Assembly (NCBI GenBank): GCA_947630195.1
Contig: CANRGQ010000002.1
Location: forward strand, 1-37,867
DNA from: an uncultured Bacilli bacterium
Lineage (GTDB): Bacteria > Bacillota_I > Bacilli_A > RF39 > UBA660
Length of the DNA stretch: 37,867 bases
Direction of reading: 5' to 3'
Made by a program: the position numbers and the translations under genes. The notes under the pieces are model-generated. The model did not search any database. It saw nothing but the letters and a program-made list of their open reading frames with translations, and was not told the DNA's origin. Shown here one piece after another: positions 10,459 through 35,914 of this stretch; position 1 is the stretch's first letter, and every line of letters starts with the position of its first letter.

Positions 10459-11481
10459 TCATTTTTTTAATAATTTATAAGACATACTTCCTAATTTATC
10501 ATCACATTTATTTTGCATACTGCCATTATAAGTATTTTCTATTTCTCCTTCCGGCGTAAAATAGTATATTTGACAAGTAAGCATATCTTTATAAACCCGA
10601 ATCGGAAGAGTTGTTCTTATTCCTAAATGAAAGTATCCTTTATAACCAATTGAGCCCATTCCTCCCGAACAATGCACGTGATACCCAAGTCTACCTAAAG
10701 AACTTCTTCCACTAATCATGGGAATTAAATTATTAGTTTCGGTCCACTCATTAGTTCTTCCTAAATAAGTTTTATCGGGATACAAAATAGTTCCTTCTTC
10801 GCCAATATTAAAATATTCTACTTTATTCTCTTTTTTGATATCTAAAATGGGATCTGTATAATAACCCATCTTCGGATTTAAACTTAAATTAACGGAATTA
10901 GGATTAATTAATATTTTATTACCCGGATTAATAATGATATCACCCGTAGTCATTCTTTTCTTTATTTCATCACCACTAAGCATGCCAATTTCTTGGCTAG
11001 TCTCATCTAAACTTTTAAAAAATGTTAGATTACCCACTTCAATATTGGGATAAATTATTGTGGGTTTCGTACAAATTATACTAAGTAAAAATGGTCCATC
11101 ATAATTATCCGTACCATAACCACTCGTAAGTTCAATACTAAGTCCTAGCAAGGATAAAGAAGTTCTTCCATGCATAACCGGAATATAACCTTTAGTTTTA
11201 ATATTCTCATTAGTCTTAGCTAAATAAACTTTATGAGGCTCTAAAAGCATACCACTCTTAGGTATTCTTGTTTTTCTTAATTTATTAATAACACCTTTAA
11301 ATACTTCTTCTTGGTATTCATAACTTTCTTTAGTATCTACCACCATATAATCATAAAAATATAATTCATCACTTAAGGTAATGCGACAACTATTGGGTTT
11401 ATCTAAAGCATTATCTAGCATATTATCTATTTGAACATTTCCTAAATCTATTTGTTTTTTTATTTCTTTATTTGTGAGCAT
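10459..11481 (-). CDS. tandem (two-module) dCTP deaminase/dUTPase-fold protein
   Basis: There are two internal repeats. Each begins L(T/S)xxEIKK and contains a Dcd-like core: HGRTSLSLLG...LLSIIC in the first and SGRSSLGRLG...HLGIRT in the second. The canonical catalytic Glu of the Dcd 'LE' motif is replaced in both modules. Confidence 0.7.
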   Translation of the reverse strand: MLTNKEIKKQIDLGNVQIDNMLDNALDKPNSCRITLSDELYFYDYMVVDTKESYEYQEEVFKGVINKLRKTRIPKSGMLLEPHKVYLAKTNENIKTKGYIPVMHGRTSLSLLGLSIELTSGYGTDNYDGPFLLSIICTKPTIIYPNIEVGNLTFFKSLDETSQEIGMLSGDEIKKRMTTGDIIINPGNKILINPNSVNLSLNPKMGYYTDPILDIKKENKVEYFNIGEEGTILYPDKTYLGRTNEWTETNNLIPMISGRSSLGRLGYHVHCSGGMGSIGYKGYFHLGIRTTLPIRVYKDMLTCQIYYFTPEGEIENTYNGSMQNKCDDKLGSMSYKLLKK

Positions 11482-12022
11482 GATGATCTTCCTTTTCTAA
11501 CACTTTTACCCTTTTATATTCTTTAGCCATCCTTGATTCCGTAGCTTCAACTTGCCCAAAGTATTTCCCCCGATAAACATTTTCGCTATTACCTATTAAA
11601 GGATAATAATAAATTCTTCCGATTGGAATATTAGGATATACTATCGTCGGATTAGCACATATAATTTCCAAAGTCCAAGTTCCTTCAAAACCATTATCGC
11701 CAAAACCAGCGGTAATGTGAATTTCCACACCTAAACTAGCCAGTTCGGTAATTCCCGATAAAAGGGGCACAAAACCATAAGTTTTGGTGTATTCATTAGT
11801 TCTTCCTAAATATAGTTTATTAGGTTCTAACATAAGACCTTCAGGAGGTATCTTAATAACTTTAGTAGGACTTGGATTTTGTACATCTAAAAAAGGTGTA
11901 TCATAGACTTTTAAAGTATCCCCTAAAGTTACTTCAATATAATTTTCACCCAGTTTGTCTTCCCAATTAGATACATAGATATTATTTGGTATTTCTTTTT
12001 TTAAACCTTCTTTATTTAACAT
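11468..12022 (-). CDS. single-module dCTP deaminase-fold protein (degenerate Ser/Arg motif, Glu retained)
   Basis: The sequence reads LEPNKLYLGRTNE...SGITELASLGVEIHITAGFGDNGFEGTWTLEIIC...YRGKYFGQ, which resembles the Dcd core and the C-terminal GKYxGQ. It overlaps the downstream tandem gene by 14 nt. Confidence 0.7.
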   Translation of the reverse strand: MLNKEGLKKEIPNNIYVSNWEDKLGENYIEVTLGDTLKVYDTPFLDVQNPSPTKVIKIPPEGLMLEPNKLYLGRTNEYTKTYGFVPLLSGITELASLGVEIHITAGFGDNGFEGTWTLEIICANPTIVYPNIPIGRIYYYPLIGNSENVYRGKYFGQVEATESRMAKEYKRVKVLEKEDHHAHK

Positions 12023-12031
12023 AAAACCTCC

Positions 12032-13558
12032 TTACTTTTCTTTAATTAATTTTTTATCTTTTTCGATAAAATCACTATAATCATTATTATAAATTACTTT
12101 TTTGACTTTTTTACCTATTTCTGTATTTTGATATTTAGTTATAATTCTATCTATAACAATATCTTTAGTTAATAAATAATAAGTAGAAATGTACATTAAT
12201 TTCTTTAAGATATCTACTTCTGCATATCCTTTTAAGATTTCTATTAAAAATACTCTTGCTACCATGTAGAAATCCTCAAAATCATCTTTGGTAAATTTAT
12301 CTAAAGGAACACTTTCTAATACTTTAAGAAAATTCTTTTCTTCCGTTAAACTTTCGCCATAGTTATCTAATAAAAATAGTAACCGAGATTTAACATTTTC
12401 TAATTCTTCATTATTTCCATATTTATTTATAAGATAATGCGCTAAAATGATATATCTTAAATAAAAGGCGCGAGTAATATTTTGATTATCTAAATAAAAC
12501 TTAAATAATTCGATGACCTCTTCTATTTCACTAATTTCTTCCTCTTCATCATCTTCGTCTTCTTTGTCATCATCTTCTACTTCATCTTCAAAATCATCAT
12601 GATAAGCCGCCATTTTTTCTTCTATTTCTTCCCTTTCTTCTAAAAATTCATCAGGGAAAATTGGTTCTGCTAAACAAGAGCCATAATCTTCTTCGGATAA
12701 TTCTTCATCATCATTACTGTTTTTGGCTTTGGCAAATTTTTTATATTCAAATAAGCCTTGTATATCCATAAGTAACTTATCACAAGCAATTGATTTAGTA
12801 CCAAAAATAGCATCATAAAAACTATTCTCTAATAAATACTCTAATTTTTTCTCATGTAACTCACAAAATTTATCTTTTATAATATCTTCACTAAGTAAGT
12901 CATAATCGTCATCATCATTTAACAATCCTAAACATCTAATGATAGTATCATAACATCTAATTTTCGCATAAGAAGAATTTCCTATTTTAGTTAAAGTGTT
13001 AACAATAAACTTAGAAATAGTTTCTATATTAGGACTATTCTTAATAATTTTATATTCATAGTAATATTTTTCTAATATTTTTTCTACTTCTATAAGTTTT
13101 AAAACTTCATTCTTAATTTTCGTAGCATGCAAAGCATCCATAGGTTTTAAATGTTTACTAAAACCTATTAATTCGCCACATATTAACTGATTATAAGGAT
13201 TTTCATAAAAAGGAAGATCAAATTTCACATCCCCAAATGATTCCATATCAACATCTTCTTTTATATAAATTCTTTCATTATCATAAGTAAAATATTCGTC
13301 ATAATTAATTAAAAAATTTTCAAAGTTTTTTCTTTCTTCTTCTAAAGATATATTAAGTCCATAATTATGAAATTCTTTAAGTAATTCTGGGAAATATTCA
13401 TCATCATATTCCTTAAAACGACTGTGATAATCAATATGTTCTTGAATTAGAGCAAGACGATAATTATGTAATTCTTCAAAAGTTAAAGACCTTTTATCTT
13501 CATAATCGTAATATCTTTCAAAGGCTAAAAAGATTATAAAATCAAAATAATTCTCCAT
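12032..13558 (-). CDS. hypothetical highly acidic 508-aa protein with a poly-Asp/Glu tract
   Basis: This is a long ORF with no TM segment. It contains the tract DDFEDEVEDDDKEDEDDEEEE and many other D/E/Y/F-rich stretches. It lies 9 nt upstream of the Dcd-like genes. I do not recognise a family. Confidence 0.6.
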   Translation of the reverse strand: MENYFDFIIFLAFERYYDYEDKRSLTFEELHNYRLALIQEHIDYHSRFKEYDDEYFPELLKEFHNYGLNISLEEERKNFENFLINYDEYFTYDNERIYIKEDVDMESFGDVKFDLPFYENPYNQLICGELIGFSKHLKPMDALHATKIKNEVLKLIEVEKILEKYYYEYKIIKNSPNIETISKFIVNTLTKIGNSSYAKIRCYDTIIRCLGLLNDDDDYDLLSEDIIKDKFCELHEKKLEYLLENSFYDAIFGTKSIACDKLLMDIQGLFEYKKFAKAKNSNDDEELSEEDYGSCLAEPIFPDEFLEEREEIEEKMAAYHDDFEDEVEDDDKEDEDDEEEEISEIEEVIELFKFYLDNQNITRAFYLRYIILAHYLINKYGNNEELENVKSRLLFLLDNYGESLTEEKNFLKVLESVPLDKFTKDDFEDFYMVARVFLIEILKGYAEVDILKKLMYISTYYLLTKDIVIDRIITKYQNTEIGKKVKKVIYNNDYSDFIEKDKKLIKEK

Positions 13559-18871: not shown

Positions 18872-20737
18872 TTAATCATTCATTTTAGTTAATAATTCTT
18901 CCCAAGTTTTATTTAAATTTTTAAGATTTTTTTCTAAATCTTCAATTTTTTTGTTTACTTCTTTTAACTTCTCATAATCCGAATACACATCTTCTTTATA
19001 AACACTTTCCTTTAATTCTTTTAATTCTTTTTCCCCTTTAGTTATTTCTTTTTCAATTTGTTTTATCTCTTTATTTAGATTATAAGTGTTTACTTTTATC
19101 TTTTCTTTTTGAGGTTTTACTTCTTCTTTCACATCTTTCCTTTTTTCTAAGTATTCTTCATAACCATAATGGTAATATTTTACTTCGTTATTTTCAAAGG
19201 CCAAAATACTAGAGGCTACTTTTTTGACTAAATACCGATCATGAGTGACAAAGATTAAAGTTCCCGTATATTCTTTTAAAATATCTTCTAAATGTTCTTT
19301 TCCTACAATATCCATATGATTAGTGGGTTCATCTAATATTAAAACATTCGGTTTATGATAGAAAATTTTACATAATTGTAAGCGAACTTTTTCTCCCCCA
19401 CTTAAAACATTTATCTTTTTATCCACATCATCATCTTTAAAGAGAAAAGACCCTAAAGCTTTTCTCGCTTCTTCATAAGATAAATCAGGTAGTTCGCATC
19501 GAAACTCTTCAATAACCGTATTATCATTATTTTGCATAGCCAGATTTTGGTCAAAATAGCCAATTTTTAAATTAGTGCCATACAAAATATCACCCTTTAA
19601 AGGTTTTATTAATCCCGCCAATGTTTTAATTAAAGTGGATTTACCAATGCCATTTTCCCCGATGATACCGAGTTTTTCCCCTCTTAAGATTTCTAAATTT
19701 AAAGTAGCAAGACTTCTATCATAACCAATACTTAAATCTTTTAAATTCATAACCATTTGACTAGATTTAGTTATTTCTTTTAAATTAGTTTGAAAAGTTT
19801 TTAAATCTTCTTTCCTTGGTTTTTCTATTAAATCCATTCTTTCAATTTGTTTTAATTTACTTAAGGCCATCTTCGCTTTGGTGGGTTTAAATCTAAATCT
19901 TTCATAAATACTTCTTAATCTTTTAATTTCTTTTTGTTGAAATTCATAATCTTTTAAAGTTTTTTCATATCTTAACTTTTTCTCTTTTTCATAATTACTA
20001 TAATTACCTTTATATTTATAAGTTTTTCCATAATCTATTTCATAAACTGTATCCACGATATTATCTAAAAACATCCGGTCATGCGAAACAATAATTAAAG
20101 TCTTAGGATAATCTTTTAGGTAATCTTCTAGGGCTTCAATAGTTTTGATATCTAAATGGTTAGTGGGTTCATCAAGTATTAATAAATCAGGTTTTGATAA
20201 CAATAATTTAATAAAGGTAATTTTAGTTCTTTCTCCACCCGAAAACTCTTTTAACATTTTGTTCTTATCTAAATCATTAAAACCAAATTTCTTTAATAAT
20301 GACTCATATTCTTTTTGATAAGAATAACCACCTTGTAATTTATAGTTTTCAAGTAGTTCTGTATATTCTTCAATAACTTTGGGAGAATTATTTGTATTCA
20401 TCTCTGCGACTAAATTATTAATTCTACTTTCCAAACTTATTAAATCACTAAATACTTTTTTTACTTCTTCAATTAAGGTTATACTATCTGACGAAAAAGT
20501 AATTTGTTCTAAATAACCAATTTTAAATTTACCCATAATAGTAACATTAAAATCATCTTCGCCAAGGCCTTTTTCAAACATCGAAGGATTAATGATGGCT
20601 CTTAAAAGAGTTGTTTTTCCCGCCCCATTTCTTCCGACAATGGCTATTTTATCATGGTCATTTATATCAATATTTACTTCTTCTAAAACGGTATTAATTC
20701 CTAAAGTTACCGCCCCATTTTTAATATTTATCTTCAT
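18872..20737 (-). CDS. ABC-F family ATPase (Uup/YfmR-like translation factor) with a C-terminal coiled coil
   Basis: It has two ABC modules (GRNGAGKTTLL and GENGIGKSTLI), two LSGGE signatures, no TM domain, an inter-domain linker and a Lys/Glu-rich C-terminal extension. Confidence 0.9.
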   Translation of the reverse strand: MKINIKNGAVTLGINTVLEEVNIDINDHDKIAIVGRNGAGKTTLLRAIINPSMFEKGLGEDDFNVTIMGKFKIGYLEQITFSSDSITLIEEVKKVFSDLISLESRINNLVAEMNTNNSPKVIEEYTELLENYKLQGGYSYQKEYESLLKKFGFNDLDKNKMLKEFSGGERTKITFIKLLLSKPDLLILDEPTNHLDIKTIEALEDYLKDYPKTLIIVSHDRMFLDNIVDTVYEIDYGKTYKYKGNYSNYEKEKKLRYEKTLKDYEFQQKEIKRLRSIYERFRFKPTKAKMALSKLKQIERMDLIEKPRKEDLKTFQTNLKEITKSSQMVMNLKDLSIGYDRSLATLNLEILRGEKLGIIGENGIGKSTLIKTLAGLIKPLKGDILYGTNLKIGYFDQNLAMQNNDNTVIEEFRCELPDLSYEEARKALGSFLFKDDDVDKKINVLSGGEKVRLQLCKIFYHKPNVLILDEPTNHMDIVGKEHLEDILKEYTGTLIFVTHDRYLVKKVASSILAFENNEVKYYHYGYEEYLEKRKDVKEEVKPQKEKIKVNTYNLNKEIKQIEKEITKGEKELKELKESVYKEDVYSDYEKLKEVNKKIEDLEKNLKNLNKTWEELLTKMND

Positions 20738-20898
20738 AACTACCTCAGAACATAAAGCAAAATTTATTTCATTTCACTTATGATAAGCCTCACGGTTTAT
20801 CTTTCCTGCTTCATGGGATTTCGCTCCTCCACAGGCCATATTTCCGACAGTCGCTGCCGTACTTGTTTTTTATTTTATTGTTTTCTTTTCCCTAGGTA
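20738..20898 (-). promoter_or_regulatory. about 160-nt 5' leader of the ABC-F gene containing a GC-rich structured core
   Basis: It lies between a consensus promoter and the GAGGT RBS. The core (about 20786-20872) is roughly 50% GC in a roughly 25% GC context. The hairpin CGGCAG-CGA-CUGUCG pairs fully only on the minus strand (one G.U pair). Confidence 0.45.
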
Positions 20899-20905
20899 CA
20901 TCTTA

Positions 20906-20934
20906 ATTATACGATACAAACTAATGATTGTCAA
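20906..20934 (-). promoter_or_regulatory. consensus sigma-A promoter (TTGACA-17-TATAAT)
   Basis: On the minus strand TTGACA (20929-20934) and TATAAT (20906-20911) are separated by exactly 17 nt. Confidence 0.8.
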
Positions 20935-21017: not shown

Positions 21018-21545
21018 TTATCTTGTTTTTTCTTTTTCTAATAATTCCGTAACAAAGGATTCAAGCATTAATAAATTTTTAAGATATAATACATTATTTT
21101 CCATAGTATTAACACCATTCACTAAAACACTTTGTAAATATATTGCTATATCTAAATAATCTAAATCTTCTAATTTTGCCATATAAGAAATTTTTAATAA
21201 ATTAACATAATAATTATATTTTTCAAAAGATAAACTTTGTGTTTCATTTCTTTGTTTCATATCTTCAAAAACTTTGGATACTCTAACTTTCCTATCTTCT
21301 ATATATTTTCGGGTTATTTCCCCCACTATTATTTCAATTCTTCTTTTATATTCTTCATATTTATCTTTTATGTCAAATGAATCTACAACACAAGCATTAT
21401 ATAAAGTATACCCTAAATCACAAGCATCTTTAGCATAACCTTTTATTAATAAAGATAGCATTGTATTATAATATTTCTCAAATTGATTAAAACTTAAATC
21501 TTTTGTTTCAATTTCTTTTAATATATCATCTAATTTATTTTCCAT
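21018..21545 (-). CDS. hypothetical 175-aa helical protein, last gene of the radical-SAM cluster
   Basis: The ORF has an AAGGAG RBS, and a candidate promoter (TTGTTA-17-TAAAAT) lies in the 80-nt gap upstream. I do not recognise a family. Confidence 0.55.
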   Translation of the reverse strand: MENKLDDILKEIETKDLSFNQFEKYYNTMLSLLIKGYAKDACDLGYTLYNACVVDSFDIKDKYEEYKRRIEIIVGEITRKYIEDRKVRVSKVFEDMKQRNETQSLSFEKYNYYVNLLKISYMAKLEDLDYLDIAIYLQSVLVNGVNTMENNVLYLKNLLMLESFVTELLEKEKTR

Positions 21546-21625
21546 TTGCCACTCCTTAGGAAAGTATTTTACTATATAAAGTTCTGATTAACAAGCGAAA
21601 AATGACAATAAATCTAAATTTAAAA

Positions 21626-22570
21626 TTATTTTATTTCTATCTGCCACTTTGGTGGATACACATAATCTATTTTATCATCTTTTGGTATATATTTCTTTTT
21701 AATTTTAACGCGATTAGACTTTAAATCCGGTAACTTTACTCGACAATATTTATCTAGTTCACAAAAAATATTTTGGCAATCGATAAGTTCTAAAGGACGA
21801 TTTCCGATTCTTTTAAAATCAAGTCCTAATCTTTTAAATTCTTGCTCTTGATTTTCATACATATAACGAATAATATCCTCATAACTTAAACCATCTCTAT
21901 CTATAAAACACTTTCTTATTCCTCTTATAGAACCAGGACCCGCAATGGTAAATTCATCTTCTCTAAAGTCTACTACTTCACTATAGTTAATATCAGTTAC
22001 TAATTGATAAGCCATAAAATTACCTATTAAAGGATAACTTCTTAAGATATTAAAAGCCTCTTCCATACTTTTACTTTTAATTATTTTATCTTGCACTAAA
22101 TCTTCCAAAAACATTTTATGAAGTAAGGCTAAATGATTATCGTGTTTATAGTCATAACCAAAGGCTTTAGTGGCACAACTAATGTAGGCATCATTATATA
22201 GTTTTATTCCTTCATTTTTAGCCTTAGTTAAAACTTTAGAATATTCTTCCATATTAAAACCTTCTAAAGTTATATCTTTAAAATTATTTATTAATAATTC
22301 CCAAGTACTTTCTTTATTAAATAATTTAAATAAAATAATCCGAAATAACATATCTTCTTTTGAATATTTCTTCCCATTATAAATAACATTTTTAAGAAGA
22401 TATTGACTAACCCGGTCATTAACCCTGTAACTATTACAAAATTTGTATTCTCTTAAAATGGGGTCATCGGTCCAAGGGGACGCCTCACCTTTTAATTTCT
22501 TCCAAAAGATATTTTGTCTTTCCCAAGCAAAATACCAATATAAATTGTAAACTTCCTCTCTTACTTTCAT
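21626..22570 (-). CDS. protein resembling the helical domain of 5-hmdU DNA kinase / aGPT-pyrophosphorylase-type base-hypermodification enzymes (no P-loop)
   Basis: The N-terminal pattern is W..ERQNIFWKKL.G..SPWTDDPILREYKFCNSYRVNDRVSQYL, with FMAYQLVTDINYS later. I recall both from 'nucleotide kinase domain'/HMUDK-helical family proteins. No GxxxxGK[ST] motif is present. This assignment is from memory only. Confidence 0.4.
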   Translation of the reverse strand: MKVREEVYNLYWYFAWERQNIFWKKLKGEASPWTDDPILREYKFCNSYRVNDRVSQYLLKNVIYNGKKYSKEDMLFRIILFKLFNKESTWELLINNFKDITLEGFNMEEYSKVLTKAKNEGIKLYNDAYISCATKAFGYDYKHDNHLALLHKMFLEDLVQDKIIKSKSMEEAFNILRSYPLIGNFMAYQLVTDINYSEVVDFREDEFTIAGPGSIRGIRKCFIDRDGLSYEDIIRYMYENQEQEFKRLGLDFKRIGNRPLELIDCQNIFCELDKYCRVKLPDLKSNRVKIKKKYIPKDDKIDYVYPPKWQIEIK

Positions 22571-22571
22571 T

Positions 22572-23558
22572 TTACCTCATACACTTTGGGTCTTTTTCCC
22601 TTAATATTCTTTTAAATGATTTATCACTACTTGCTATAATTTTTTGCCCTAAACAACCACTTTTACAAATGTCATAATTTTCACATCCACTGCAACTAGA
22701 CTCCTTTTGAATCTCTCTTAAATTTTTAAAATAAGAAGAATTATATAGTTCTAATAAACTATTATCTTTAATGTTACCACTTACTCCTAAAACATGAAAA
22801 TATTTAACCGAATCACAAGGATAAGCTACCCCATCAAAGCCAATAATCATTATTTCATCCCCAATAACACAAGGACTATTTTGGATACCTAAAATATTCC
22901 AAGGTGAACCTAGTCTTATTTTATCTTGAAATAAACTATTTAAGTAAAATTTCTTTAACTCTAAAAGTTCTTTCTTACTTAAATCCATATCAATAGTGCC
23001 TTTTTCATGGGGAACAAATCTTAAAATACTAACCTTTTCAAAATAAGGTTTATCTTTAAAAGTGTCTATTGTATAATTTATAACTCTTGCAAAATTCTTA
23101 AAAGAATCTTTGCTTAAGGCATAATGAAAACCTAACTCTCCCTTATTATCTTTAAAAACTTTATCAAAAAATTCTTCATTAGTATATTCTGATAAGTCAT
23201 CTTCTAAAGAAAGAGTATCCGCTAGAGAATAAATAATTTTATCTAAACCAGAATTTATTAAATGTCTATATTTTCTTAGATTTTCTTTAGTTTTATAAGC
23301 AAAAGTATAAATGGTTGTTTTTAAATCTAAACCACTTGCTAAACTTATAAGCAAATCTAAATTTTTATACATTAAAGGTTCGCCACCGGTAAAAACAATA
23401 CTTTGGGCACCCATTTCTTTGGCTTCTAAAATAATTCTAGCGACATCATCAAAAGAAAGTTCCTCTAGGTATTTTTTATCATTCGTTGCTCTACTAGAAC
23501 AATGAAGGCAATTACGCATACATCTGTTAGTTAATTCAATTTTGACTTCCTTTAACAT
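22572..23558 (-). CDS. radical SAM enzyme with C-terminal SPASM/twitch-type auxiliary cluster domain
   Basis: It has C13-x3-C17-x2-C20 (CMRNCLHC), an FTGGEPL SAM-binding motif, and the C-terminal cluster PCD...CSGCENYDICKSGCLG. A GGGAGGG RBS precedes the start. Confidence 0.85.
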   Translation of the reverse strand: MLKEVKIELTNRCMRNCLHCSSRATNDKKYLEELSFDDVARIILEAKEMGAQSIVFTGGEPLMYKNLDLLISLASGLDLKTTIYTFAYKTKENLRKYRHLINSGLDKIIYSLADTLSLEDDLSEYTNEEFFDKVFKDNKGELGFHYALSKDSFKNFARVINYTIDTFKDKPYFEKVSILRFVPHEKGTIDMDLSKKELLELKKFYLNSLFQDKIRLGSPWNILGIQNSPCVIGDEIMIIGFDGVAYPCDSVKYFHVLGVSGNIKDNSLLELYNSSYFKNLREIQKESSCSGCENYDICKSGCLGQKIIASSDKSFKRILREKDPKCMR

Positions 23559-23589
23559 AAAACCCTCCCAAAGAATTCTTTCTAAAATT

Positions 23590-23598
23590 ATTATAACA
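23590..23598 (-). promoter_or_regulatory. extended -10 promoter element (TGtTATAAT) for the radical-SAM operon
   Basis: Read directly on the minus strand, about 30 nt upstream of the RBS. Confidence 0.55.
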
Positions 23599-23667: not shown

Positions 23668-25389
23668 ATGAAGAAGTTAAAAGGGTTTAAAACAATATTA
23701 AATGTGGCTAAAGAATATAAAAATAAAATTATTATATCTTCTTTAGGTATTGTTGTTTGTAGTTTTTCTTCCATGCTAGTAGGTATTTTAAATGGTAAAG
23801 CCCTAGAAGAAATTACCAAACTTAATCTTAAAAATGCCATTTTAATTTTACTTATCTATTTATTTTCCGAATTATTCTTTAATTCTTTAAATAAACTTTC
23901 GACTTCTAAACTATCCAAAACCGAAGTCCAAATATCAAGAAAAGTTGCTTACCTTACTTATGAAAAAACATTATCTTTACCAGCTTATGCTTTTGAAAAG
24001 AAATCAAGTGGCGAATTTATCAATCGTATTACGAGTGATAGTCAAGTTATCATTAATTCTTTTGATCAACTTTTATTTCTTACCTCAAATTTTCTAGCTT
24101 CATTTATCATTTTAATTTATATCTTTTTTAATTCTTATATCGTGGCTTTCGAAATTATTATTTTCATCATTATTTTTGGAATCTTTGTTAAAATTTTTCA
24201 TCCCTTACTGGAAAAAGTTAATAAAGAAAAGAAACAATTAAATGATATCGCCATTACCCAAATTAATGAATCCGTAAGAGGTATTCGCGAAATTAAAACT
24301 TTAGGTATTAAAAATAATTTATTTAAAAATTTAACTACTTTAATTACCAAACAATTAGAAAAATCTAATAAAGAAATTGATTTATATATGATTTATGATT
24401 TAATTAGTAATTCTTTAAAAAGTATTTTAGAAGTTGGAGTTTTTATCACCTGTGCTGTTTTACTTTATAAGGGTTCTGTTAGTCTTACTTTCTTTGTGGC
24501 TATGACTTATTACATTTATCGTTATACGTGGATTATTGAAAACATCACTTCATTTACAAGAACTTATAATGAAACCAAAGTATCTGTTAAAAGAATTAAT
24601 GAAATTTTAGAAAATGAATTATTTAGTGATGTTCATTTTGGTAATGTTACTTTAGATAATCCTAAGGGAATTATTAAATTTAATAATGTTACATTTAGTT
24701 ATCCCAATGAAAAGGATACTTTAAAACATTTTAGTATTACTTTTGAACCCAATAAAAAAATTGGTATTGTGGGAAGAAGTGGTCAAGGTAAAACAACTAT
24801 TTTTAATCTTTTAACAAGAGTATTTGATGTAAGCATTGGTTCTATTACAATTGATGGCGTAAATATTGAAGAATTAACCGAAGAAAGTCTAAGGCAAAAT
24901 ATTTCTATTATTAGACAAGATCCTTTCTTATTTAATAATACGATTAAAGAAAACTTTAAACTTTTAGATGAAAATATTACCCTTAAAGAAATAAGAAAGT
25001 ATTGCCAAATGGCCTACATTGATGATTATATAATGACTCTACCGAAAAAATATAACACTGTTTTAGGAGAAGGTGGCGTTAACTTATCGGGAGGTCAAAA
25101 ACAAAGATTAGCTATAGCCAGAGCCCTTGCTAAAAAGAGTAAAATCATACTATTTGATGAAGCCACTTCCGCTTTAGATAATGAATCCCAAGACTACATA
25201 AAAAAAGTTATTAATGACTTAGTTAAAGACCATACCGTTATTATTGTCGCTCATCGTTTATCCACCATTAAAGATGCCGATGTTATCTATGTTATTTTAG
25301 ATGGTAAAGTTAATGATATGGGTACTCATAAAGAATTAATGCAAAAATCTAGTATTTATAAAAAATTATATCAAAGTGAAGAAAAGTAG
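23668..25389 (+). CDS. ABC exporter, fused permease/ATPase (type I exporter, MsbA/bacteriocin-exporter-like)
   Basis: The N-terminal half has six TM helices. The C-terminal NBD has Walker A GRSGQGKTT, signature LSGGQKQRLAIARAL and Walker B ILFDEATSALD. There is no C39 peptidase domain. Confidence 0.9.
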   Translation: MKKLKGFKTILNVAKEYKNKIIISSLGIVVCSFSSMLVGILNGKALEEITKLNLKNAILILLIYLFSELFFNSLNKLSTSKLSKTEVQISRKVAYLTYEKTLSLPAYAFEKKSSGEFINRITSDSQVIINSFDQLLFLTSNFLASFIILIYIFFNSYIVAFEIIIFIIIFGIFVKIFHPLLEKVNKEKKQLNDIAITQINESVRGIREIKTLGIKNNLFKNLTTLITKQLEKSNKEIDLYMIYDLISNSLKSILEVGVFITCAVLLYKGSVSLTFFVAMTYYIYRYTWIIENITSFTRTYNETKVSVKRINEILENELFSDVHFGNVTLDNPKGIIKFNNVTFSYPNEKDTLKHFSITFEPNKKIGIVGRSGQGKTTIFNLLTRVFDVSIGSITIDGVNIEELTEESLRQNISIIRQDPFLFNNTIKENFKLLDENITLKEIRKYCQMAYIDDYIMTLPKKYNTVLGEGGVNLSGGQKQRLAIARALAKKSKIILFDEATSALDNESQDYIKKVINDLVKDHTVIIVAHRLSTIKDADVIYVILDGKVNDMGTHKELMQKSSIYKKLYQSEEK

Positions 25390-34984: not shown

Positions 34985-35914
34985 ATGCAAAGAAAATTTT
35001 ATAATGAAATAACCAAAATTATTGAAAATTATGAAGTAAATAAAAAGGTAAGAGAAAGACAAAATAATAGAGAGGAATTATTATCTAAATGGAAAATTGG
35101 GAAACTTCTAGTTGAAGCCCAAGGTGGAGAGCAAAGAGCTAAATATGGAAATAAATTAATCAACGAATGGTCGAAAGAGTTTTCATTAATTTATGGAAAT
35201 GGTTATAGTGCTAGAAATTTAAGAAAAATGCGCCAATTTTATCAAACATTTCCAATTTGGCCGCCAGTGGTGGCCAAATTATCATGGTCACATATTATGG
35301 AACTTTTATCAATAAAAAATGAAAATGAGAGAAATTATTATATTAATCAGGTTATCTTGAATAATTTATCAAAAAGAGAATTAAGAAAAGAAATAAAAAA
35401 TAAATCTTTTGATAGATTATCTTATGCTGATAAAAATAATATAAAGTTAATTGATAATAACAAGAATTTACCAATATCAATTAGGGATATGATTAAAGAT
35501 CCAATAATACTAGAAACTAATAAAAATATTTCTAACTTAAATGAAAAGATAATTCATAAAGAATTAATTAATTTACTCGAAAATAAATTTTTAGAATTAG
35601 GTACGGGCTTTACTCTTGCTGGTCATGAATACAAAATAACCCTTGATAATAAAACTTATAAAATAGATTTACTTTTCTTTAATGTCGAAATTAATGCCTA
35701 CGTTGTTGTGGAAGTTAAAAATAGAGAATTTAAACCAAGTGATATAGGGCAAATTGATTTCTATATGAAACTTATAGATGATAAACTTAGAAAGAATTAT
35801 CATAACAAAACTGAAGGTATCTTAATAGTTAAAGAAAAAAATAAATATATTGTTAAATATATGACTAATGATAATATTTATATTACAAATTTTAGTTTAG
35901 AGCAAATATCTTAA
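34985..35914 (+). CDS. YhcG/DUF1016-family PDDEXK nuclease-domain protein
   Basis: The N-terminus has the YhcG pattern (WKIGKLL...YG..LI...S......GYS.RNL..MRQFY..F......LSWSH...L). The C-terminus has a PD-(D/E)xK-like core (IDLLFFN...VVVEVK). Confidence 0.8.
   Translation: MQRKFYNEITKIIENYEVNKKVRERQNNREELLSKWKIGKLLVEAQGGEQRAKYGNKLINEWSKEFSLIYGNGYSARNLRKMRQFYQTFPIWPPVVAKLSWSHIMELLSIKNENERNYYINQVILNNLSKRELRKEIKNKSFDRLSYADKNNIKLIDNNKNLPISIRDMIKDPIILETNKNISNLNEKIIHKELINLLENKFLELGTGFTLAGHEYKITLDNKTYKIDLLFFNVEINAYVVVEVKNREFKPSDIGQIDFYMKLIDDKLRKNYHNKTEGILIVKEKNKYIVKYMTNDNIYITNFSLEQIS

Follow-up and report, generated by a model that had tools for sequence, protein, structure and literature searches.

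A radical SAM/SPASM enzyme and a stand-alone PPlase1 protein form a conserved gene pair in gut Bacilli, possibly a route to a new anaerobic nucleobase modification

The locus

The DNA analysed here is a stretch of 37,867 nucleotides (nt) from an uncultured Bacilli bacterium (assembly GCA_947630195.1, contig CANRGQ010000002.1, positions 1 to 37,867), hereafter called the window, in which a gene for a radical S-adenosylmethionine (SAM) enzyme with a SPASM domain (rSAM) directly precedes a gene for a stand-alone PPlase1 protein. The sequence is chromosomal, with a GC content of about 27% and genes including uvrA, uvrB, lgt, proS, a trxB-like gene and an ABC-F gene. Among its annotated open reading frames (ORFs) there are no phage or integrase genes, and the original prediction, made from the sequence alone, that phage structural genes and integrases are missing nearby thus extends to the entire window. 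The features around the pair are as follows.

23668-25389, opposite strand: ABC exporter (ABC_membrane and ABC_tran domains), divergent from the rSAM gene and 109 nt upstream of it
23618 to 23590, minus strand: promoter-like site, TAAACA-17-TATAAT with TG (extended -10), 10 of 12 consensus matches
23563-23569, minus strand: Shine-Dalgarno sequence GGGAGGG, read from the sequence, 4 nt before the rSAM ATG
22572-23558, minus strand: rSAM, 328 amino acids (aa), with a full SPASM domain and three [4Fe-4S] sites predicted from Pfam matches and the cysteine pattern
21626-22570, minus strand: stand-alone PPlase1 (PF18723), 314 aa, assigned by Pfam, phrog_2396 and an AlphaFold2 (AF2) model
21018-21545, minus strand: ORFan of 175 aa, after an 80-nt gap behind the PPlase1 gene

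The 314-aa protein matches PF18723 over residues 6-284 (profile positions 2-280 of 281) with an E-value of 1.8e-106 and 356 bits against a cutoff of 25, and it also matches phrog_2396. PF18723 is the aGPT-Pplase clade 1, or PPlase1, of the phage literature, and owes its Pfam name HMUDK_hel to the fusion of kinase and PPlase1 in phage SP10 (PMC5889632). The original assignment to the helical family attached to 5-hydroxymethyl-2'-deoxyuridine (5-hmdU) DNA kinases was therefore correct: the profile search places the protein in this family over its full length and not in an unrelated one, and the predicted structure matches those of SP10 and PhiW-14. As had also been noticed, the protein has no P-loop kinase and consists of the helical domain only. 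A Foldseek search of BFVD with the AF2 model (pLDDT 95.6) gave the SP10 5-hmdU DNA kinase as the best match (TM score 0.81), together with phiRSL1, PhiW-14 and entries named 'Pplase1'; ADDT-domain proteins rank next (TM score about 0.5, probability 1.0). In the Protein Data Bank (PDB), the sequence search with PPlase1 gave no match, whereas Foldseek gave weak matches (E 0.5-5, TM score 0.35-0.5), nearly all of them helix-hairpin-helix (HhH) DNA glycosylases such as AlkA, OGG and AGOG. The model thus suggests a divergent, HhH-glycosylase-like all-helical protein. PPlase1 has no Pfam match to PF18724 (ADDT).

The sequence of PPlase1 is marked by the motifs PWTxDP..FCNxYRxxDRVSQ, AGPGxxRG and D264..C270-E271-x-D-K-Y-x-R. 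Pairwise alignment finds these motifs, including C-E-x-DKY-x-R, in phage YuA gp14 as well, and the columns PWTxDP...FCNxxR, AGPGxxRG and CExDKYxR are invariant in an alignment of 75 sequences. Several cysteines are invariant (C45, C132, C221, C265 and C270). The protein is basic (pI 8.6) and 25-31% identical to phage PPlase1 proteins.

The rSAM carries the SAM-cluster motif C13x3C17x2C20 and matches Radical_SAM (7.5e-16), SPASM (1.4e-9) and Fer4_12 in Pfam. All seven cysteines of the SPASM pattern are present, namely C230-x12-G-x4-C248, C289x2C292x5C298x3C302 (CSGCENYDICKSGC) and C326, in agreement with the C-terminal auxiliary-cluster motif first read from the sequence. The SAM motif begins at residue 13 and leaves no room for a separate N-terminal peptide-recognition domain (RRE), as had been pointed out; Pfam and NCBIfam profiles give no RRE or PqqD match either. 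Like the SPASM/twitch enzymes MoaA, BlsE, BtrN, DesII and the anaerobic sulfatase-maturing enzyme (anSME), it has a partial TIM-barrel core with a C-terminal auxiliary-cluster domain; its length of about 330 aa and the lack of an RRE fit this group, and MoaA and BlsE rank high among its matches by sequence and by structure. Unlike them, it comes near no equivalog cutoff and is defined by its PPlase1 neighbour. Judged by sequence, the enzyme is an orphan SPASM subfamily found beside PPlase1 genes, because none of the NCBIfam equivalog models comes near its own cutoff; the close ones among 445 rSAM homologues adjoin PF18723 genes. In the AF2 model, structural neighbours are generic SPASM/MoaA/anSME proteins, with SuiB, PqqE and anSME among the top structures.

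Upstream of the rSAM gene, the proposed GGGAGGG ribosome-binding site is in place. An extended -10 promoter is plausible but not proven: the site exists, as had been described, but it is a consensus match only, and promoter-like sites in this AT-rich region are not enriched over shuffled sequences.

Conservation of the gene pair

The rSAM stop codon TAA (22572-22574) and the PPlase1 start codon ATG (22568-22570) are separated by 1 nt. When each species was represented by a single genome, a PPlase1 relative turned up in at least 281 species; the best 80 relatives are 73-93% identical, and 76 loci could be scored. In 40 of these 76 loci, a rSAM homologue (60-93% identical) lies directly upstream of PPlase1 on the same strand, usually with a gap of 1-4 nt. 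The coupling of the two genes is beyond chance because this arrangement recurs in 40 species-level loci, and the 1-nt spacing on which the original prediction had built is borne out. Moreover, the pairwise identities of rSAM and PPlase1 correlate (r=0.81); the two proteins co-evolve and share a history. The nearest loci come from gut metagenome-assembled genomes (MAGs), with rabbit, human, mouse, chicken and ruminant as hosts and with the labels uncultured Bacilli, Tenericutes or 'Clostridium sp. CAG', which we take to be members of the GTDB order RF39 and its relatives.

No other neighbour of the pair is conserved across the loci, and the conserved unit is a pair and not a trio. The downstream 175-aa protein, which had been counted as a third member, has no family match, no PDB match and only three homologues in 5.8 billion proteins. 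Its gene is restricted to the nearest relatives and locus L024, is missing from L010 and L011, which are close relatives, and evolves fast under weak constraint (ratio of nonsynonymous to synonymous substitution rates, dN/dS, about 0.7). It is a lineage-restricted ORFan outside the conserved module, and the trio as a unit was rejected.

PPlase1 itself is under very strong purifying selection. In an alignment of 81 sequences, 150 of the 314 columns are invariant, and most neighbouring gene families are less conserved between the same genome pairs (0.34-0.75 identical). In comparison with the nearest relative, PPlase1 has a dN/dS of 0.10, rSAM one of 0.18 and the adjoining ABC-F gene one of 0.11. 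The constraint on PPlase1 is at housekeeping level, which is unusual for a defence gene.

A phage or prophage origin of the pair was rejected, with no phage genes in the window and viral contigs nearly devoid of relatives: scans of viral contigs gave a single PPlase1 match, at a contig edge, and no rSAM match. This match (L102, 6-815), the sole close PPlase1 relative in IMG/VR with 77% identity, is cut at the edge of a 19-kb viral contig and may be the host flank of a predicted prophage.

Several individual loci show other arrangements. Two MAGs carry the pair twice on different contigs (L035 and L061 in CANQDM01; L047 and L054 in CALXCA01). The two PPlase1 copies are 79% identical in one of these MAGs and 91% in the second, which could reflect paralogy, horizontal transfer or an artefact of binning. 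In a human-gut lineage (L089, 8939-13005), the pair lies beside a CHAT protease, a Mob_Pre relaxase and a serine recombinase, a flank resembling a mobile element. In lineages without rSAM, PPlase1 is closely coupled to other genes: an AP_endonuc_2 gene (xylose-isomerase-like TIM barrel) overlaps the PPlase1 start by 4 nt in L042 (7198-8004), and in L002, L059, L060 and L081 PPlase1 lies between a tRNA_bind (PF01588) gene and an overlapping gene for a SAM-dependent methyltransferase (7594-9606 in L002/L060).

Distant operons and phage cassettes

An exhaustive search (E<=1e-3) found PF18723 relatives in 4,487 clusters at 50% identity. PPlase1 is fused in this family to an N-terminal P-loop Thymidylate_kin-like kinase, to C-terminal MazG and MazG_C domains, to a GT1 glycosyltransferase, or to NADAR with an N6/N4 DNA methylase; no rSAM-PPlase1 fusion occurs among the 150 best representatives of the 50%-identity clusters. 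A metagenome scan with a 10-sequence alignment added environmental relatives at 48-54% identity, which lie nearly always in an operon of the order HTH(XRE), M78 peptidase, a protein of about 267 aa without a Pfam match (u267), and PPlase1. According to tblastn, this operon is present in about 27 environmental loci (e.g., L178 2839-7008, L150 2797-9494 and L097 4372-8570), with a kinase or MazG-MazG_C fused to PPlase1, a dCTP-deaminase-like (DCD) or dUTPase-like gene, and a SPASM rSAM as optional members, and it sometimes stands in surroundings that resemble defence islands.

The operons of L150, L154 and L178 encode a SPASM rSAM that is 28-31% identical to that of the window over its full length and has the C-terminal motifs PCDxxK, CxSGCxxQK and DPxC in common with it. 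In L150, it is accompanied by a PPlase1-MazG-MazG_C fusion and a DCD/dUTPase-like gene, and in L154 by a kinase-PPlase1 fusion and a fragment resembling a class II aminoacyl-tRNA synthetase. More distant SPASM rSAMs (21-24% identity) lie within about 1.5 kb downstream of PPlase1 in L168 and L175, in the latter on the opposite strand. The rSAM-PPlase1 link is thus old and recurrent, because homologous SPASM rSAMs occur in distant PPlase1 operons, and its surroundings there are sets of nucleotide-centred enzymes; the predicted neighbourhood is real and recurs in distant lineages. As a side observation, the synthetase fragment of L154 (7087-7692, 201 aa, tRNA-synt_2, E=3.5e-45) overlaps the end of the rSAM gene and might activate an amino acid for transfer.

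The pair of the window differs from these operons in several respects. It has no HTH, M78, u267, kinase or MazG component (M78 and u267 are absent, by tblastn, from the window and from every locus of the gut-Bacilli type), its gene order is reversed with rSAM first, and it sits amid housekeeping genes and is far more conserved. The environmental operons themselves are predicted only and unvalidated (PMC13092281).

Phage thymidine-hypermodification cassettes (M6/YuA, ViI, SP10 and PhiW-14) are among the closest known systems. They combine dUMP hydroxymethylase, the 5-HMUDK kinase, PPlase1 and ADDT/PPlase2, in some cases along with a PLP enzyme and a rSAM isomerase. The M6-like cassette has the order Nmad5, PPlase1, kinase, rSAM, pyridoxal-phosphate (PLP) enzyme and PPlase2 (PMC9476957), and the order in phage YuA was checked as gp10 ADDT (PF18724), gp11 PLP enzyme, gp12 rSAM, gp13 HMUDK kinase, gp14 PF18723 and gp15 Nmad5. 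YuA gp14, the ViI-type proteins, the C-terminal domain of SP10 gp186 and PhiW-14 gp72 have the same family, motifs and predicted fold as PPlase1 of the window. Some of the cassettes also use a radical SAM enzyme, which in phage M6 acts on DNA (PMC8989533). However, the rSAM of the window is a SPASM type of 328 aa whereas the M6/YuA isomerase has 480 aa; the window has no PLP enzyme or Nmad5, and its pair is chromosomal, with close relatives essentially absent from viral contigs. A homology of the rSAM to the isomerase M6 gp53/YuA gp12 was rejected, since BLASTP against YuA gp12 gave nothing significant, and the kinship to phage-pathway rSAMs that the original prediction had hinted at does not reach beyond the superfamily level.

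In vitro reconstitution of the M6 pathway needed only the kinase and PPlase2, and PPlase1 was dispensable (PMC8989533). PPlase2, also named ADDT or aGPT-Pplase clade 2 (structures solved for YuA and PaMx11), belongs to a sister family whose fold is related, contains HhH and is metal-dependent. Its Cys/Glu pair attacks C6 of a 5-substituted uracil (PMC8989533), and, in a weak alignment, PPlase1 likewise has a conserved cysteine with a nearby acidic residue in an equivalent C-terminal helix. ADDT requires kinase-made 5-phosphomethyl-dU, and the kinase is absent here. Both protein families, cellular PPlase1 homologues and their nucleotide-enzyme partners are already known; in the literature covered, which does not include the family-defining paper of Iyer et al. 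2013, neither a SPASM rSAM as partner nor the minimal, highly conserved pair in gut Bacilli was found to be described.

Proposed function

On the best-supported reading, to which we give about an even chance, the rSAM/SPASM enzyme and PPlase1 may form a two-enzyme module acting on a pyrimidine nucleobase that is either part of DNA or carried by a free (deoxy)nucleotide. PPlase1 would recognise and hold the base by means of its HhH-like fold, its basic charge and the AGPGxxRG hairpin, a role suggested by the fold and by motifs that it has in common with the phage companions of 5-hmdU DNA kinases. A further probable contribution is catalysis, covalent or acid-base, by way of D264...C270-E271, a motif conserved in phages and bacteria alike that could be analogous to the Cys/Glu pair of ADDT. 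The rSAM takes the place of the kinase or MazG partners of other lineages and would act on the C5 substituent by SAM-dependent radical chemistry, with abstraction of a hydrogen atom followed by oxidation via the auxiliary clusters. This would provide an oxygen-independent route of base activation or alteration in strict gut anaerobes. The output could be a self-mark, a repair step or an antiviral nucleotide.

Several points weigh against this reading, and the main difficulty is that PPlase1 occurs without rSAM in half of the species. The rSAM is lacking or decayed in about 45% of related loci: none is found within 8 kb in 36 of the 76 scorable loci, where PPlase1 is intact and equally conserved (mean pairwise identity 0.81, compared with 0.85 in rSAM-positive loci). 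Presence and absence of rSAM are interspersed on the PPlase1 tree and decayed remnants are visible in L027, L039, L037 and L038; thus, rSAM was lost repeatedly while PPlase1 was retained, and the rSAM is dispensable in about half of the related species. Furthermore, no PPlase1 residue covaries with the presence of rSAM in 81 sequences (maximum total-variation distance 0.44). Since PPlase1 is equally conserved without rSAM and no residue tracks it, PPlase1 has a function independent of rSAM. Because PPlase1 works alone in half of the species, the rSAM would have to extend or feed this function.

Other points concern the chemistry. The activity of PPlase1 is unassigned even in phages (PMC8989533), and the structural neighbours of the rSAM mix peptide, sugar and nucleotide enzymes and are uninformative on its substrate. 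The profile-profile alignment of PPlase1 with ADDT that sets cysteine on cysteine is statistically weak, with an insignificant score, and the link by structure is the better one. Additionally, the annotated ORFs of the window include no dUMP hydroxymethylase or TET/JBP enzyme as a source of 5-hmdU, the window has no 5-HMUDK kinase (PF18748 or Thymidylate_kin-like), fused or adjacent, and ADDT/PPlase2 (PF18724) has no match in the three proteins or their window neighbours.

The nucleobase or nucleotide module is nevertheless favoured over a cluster for a ribosomally synthesised and post-translationally modified peptide (RiPP), because the pair lacks a kinase, a conserved precursor peptide and a phage context and the rSAM leaves no space for an RRE. 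On this point the original prediction, which had preferred such a module, is much the better supported of the two. A more specific proposal, which we regard as improbable but worth stating, is that gut Bacilli may make a C5-modified pyrimidine without oxygen, kinase, ADDT or hydroxymethylase, by means of the SPASM rSAM and PPlase1. If true, such a base in the cell's own DNA would be a cellular form of thymidine-type hypermodification; otherwise, it would be a modified nucleotide. Either outcome would reveal the missing activity of the PPlase1 family.

Every class of thymidine-hypermodifying phage has PPlase1, and the family extends to thousands of bacterial proteins. In the gut Bacilli it is reduced to a minimum, standing by itself or beside a single partner enzyme, at housekeeping-level constraint and in hundreds of gut species, and this minimal setting is a clean and tractable system for finding the function of the family. 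If the rSAM acts on a nucleobase, abundant uncultured bacteria of human and animal guts would possess a new anaerobic pathway to modified DNA or nucleotides. This would also bear on phage-host conflict, on how metagenomic DNA is read, given biases of sequencing and restriction, and on enzymatic tools for labelling DNA.

Alternative explanations

A role in anti-phage defence is rather unlikely. PPlase1 would sense or process phage-type modified pyrimidines (5-hmdU, 5-hydroxymethyl-2'-deoxycytidine and derivatives) or the dNTP pool, and the rSAM would make or destroy a nucleotide, as viperins do; the chemistry overlaps with that of the nucleobase module, and the biological role differs. Relatives at 48-53% identity lie in contexts resembling defence islands (type I restriction-modification, AAA_15 with Metallophos, TIR/SLATT), but the pair of the window sits amid housekeeping genes. 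The pairing of HTH and M78 genes is typical of regulated defence operons, and a cassette of HTH, M78 peptidase and u267 precedes nearly all environmental relatives; however, the gut-Bacilli type has none of these three genes. DefensePredictor lists aGPT-Pplase, MazG, MazG_C and dUTPase as predicted, unvalidated defence domains (PMC13092281), whereas no PADLOC model matches PPlase1 and the rSAM gives only generic viperin-core matches. The two MAGs with two copies of the pair and the locus beside CHAT, Mob_Pre and resolvase genes also speak for defence. Against this, the spread over at least 281 species, the 73-93% identity of the best 80 relatives and a dN/dS of 0.10 are unlike the typically patchy and fast-evolving defence genes.

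A function in DNA repair, which we consider quite unlikely, would cast PPlase1 as an HhH-glycosylase-like enzyme of reduced genomes that flips out a pyrimidine, whether damaged or aberrant, and removes or processes it, with the rSAM as an optional anaerobic partner in a logic comparable to that of spore photoproduct lyase. Its basic pI, its housekeeping-level conservation and its persistence without rSAM fit such a role. The PDB fold matches are almost exclusively HhH glycosylases, but they are weak (E of at least 0.5), and the canonical catalytic Asp/Lys of HhH-GPD enzymes was not identified in PPlase1. The AP-endonuclease-2-family gene that overlaps the PPlase1 start in L042 is confined to one lineage, and the fusion partners of PPlase1 are kinases and MazG rather than enzymes of base excision repair.

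It is doubtful that the rSAM acts as a maturase of PPlase1 itself, for instance by oxidation or cross-linking of cysteines, as anSME does on sulfatases. SPASM enzymes typically act on peptides or proteins, SuiB, PqqE and anSME are among the top structural neighbours, the rSAM gene is translationally coupled to that of its presumed target, and PPlase1 has several invariant cysteines. However, PPlase1 is equally conserved after loss of the rSAM, with no covarying position, and in the distant systems the rSAM lies downstream of PPlase1 or separated from it among nucleotide enzymes.

Finally, maturation by the rSAM of a ribosomal peptide exported by the divergent ABC exporter is very improbable and was rejected as essentially excluded: SPASM rSAMs are common as RiPP maturases and the exporter lies close by on the other strand, but the CxxxCxxC motif at residue 13 leaves no N-terminal RRE, no small ORF that could encode a precursor peptide is conserved near the pair in 37 rSAM-positive loci, the exporter adjoins the pair in just a few loci among the closer relatives (cluster c5), and the sole conserved partner of the rSAM is PPlase1.

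Other features of the window

An Rfam scan of the window gave no match. In the region 20738-20934 (minus strand), upstream of the ABC-F gene (18872-20737), a perfect sigma-70 consensus, TTGACA-17-TATAAT (20934 to 20906), precedes a leader of about 170 nt that is partly richer in GC. The leader resembles the attenuator type known for antibiotic-resistance ABC-F genes, without an Rfam match.

The region 10459-13558 (minus strand) has two neighbouring DCD genes, for proteins of 340 aa (with two DCD stretches) and 184 aa, behind a gene for a 508-aa protein without a Pfam match. DCD/dUTPase-like genes also occur in the distant PPlase1 operons of L150 and L097, and tblastn shows no close relation of these to the DCD genes of the window. 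A YhcG-type PDDEXK nuclease with a DUF1016 N-terminal domain (34985-35914) is encoded directly downstream of uvrB and a short-chain dehydrogenase/reductase (SDR) gene.

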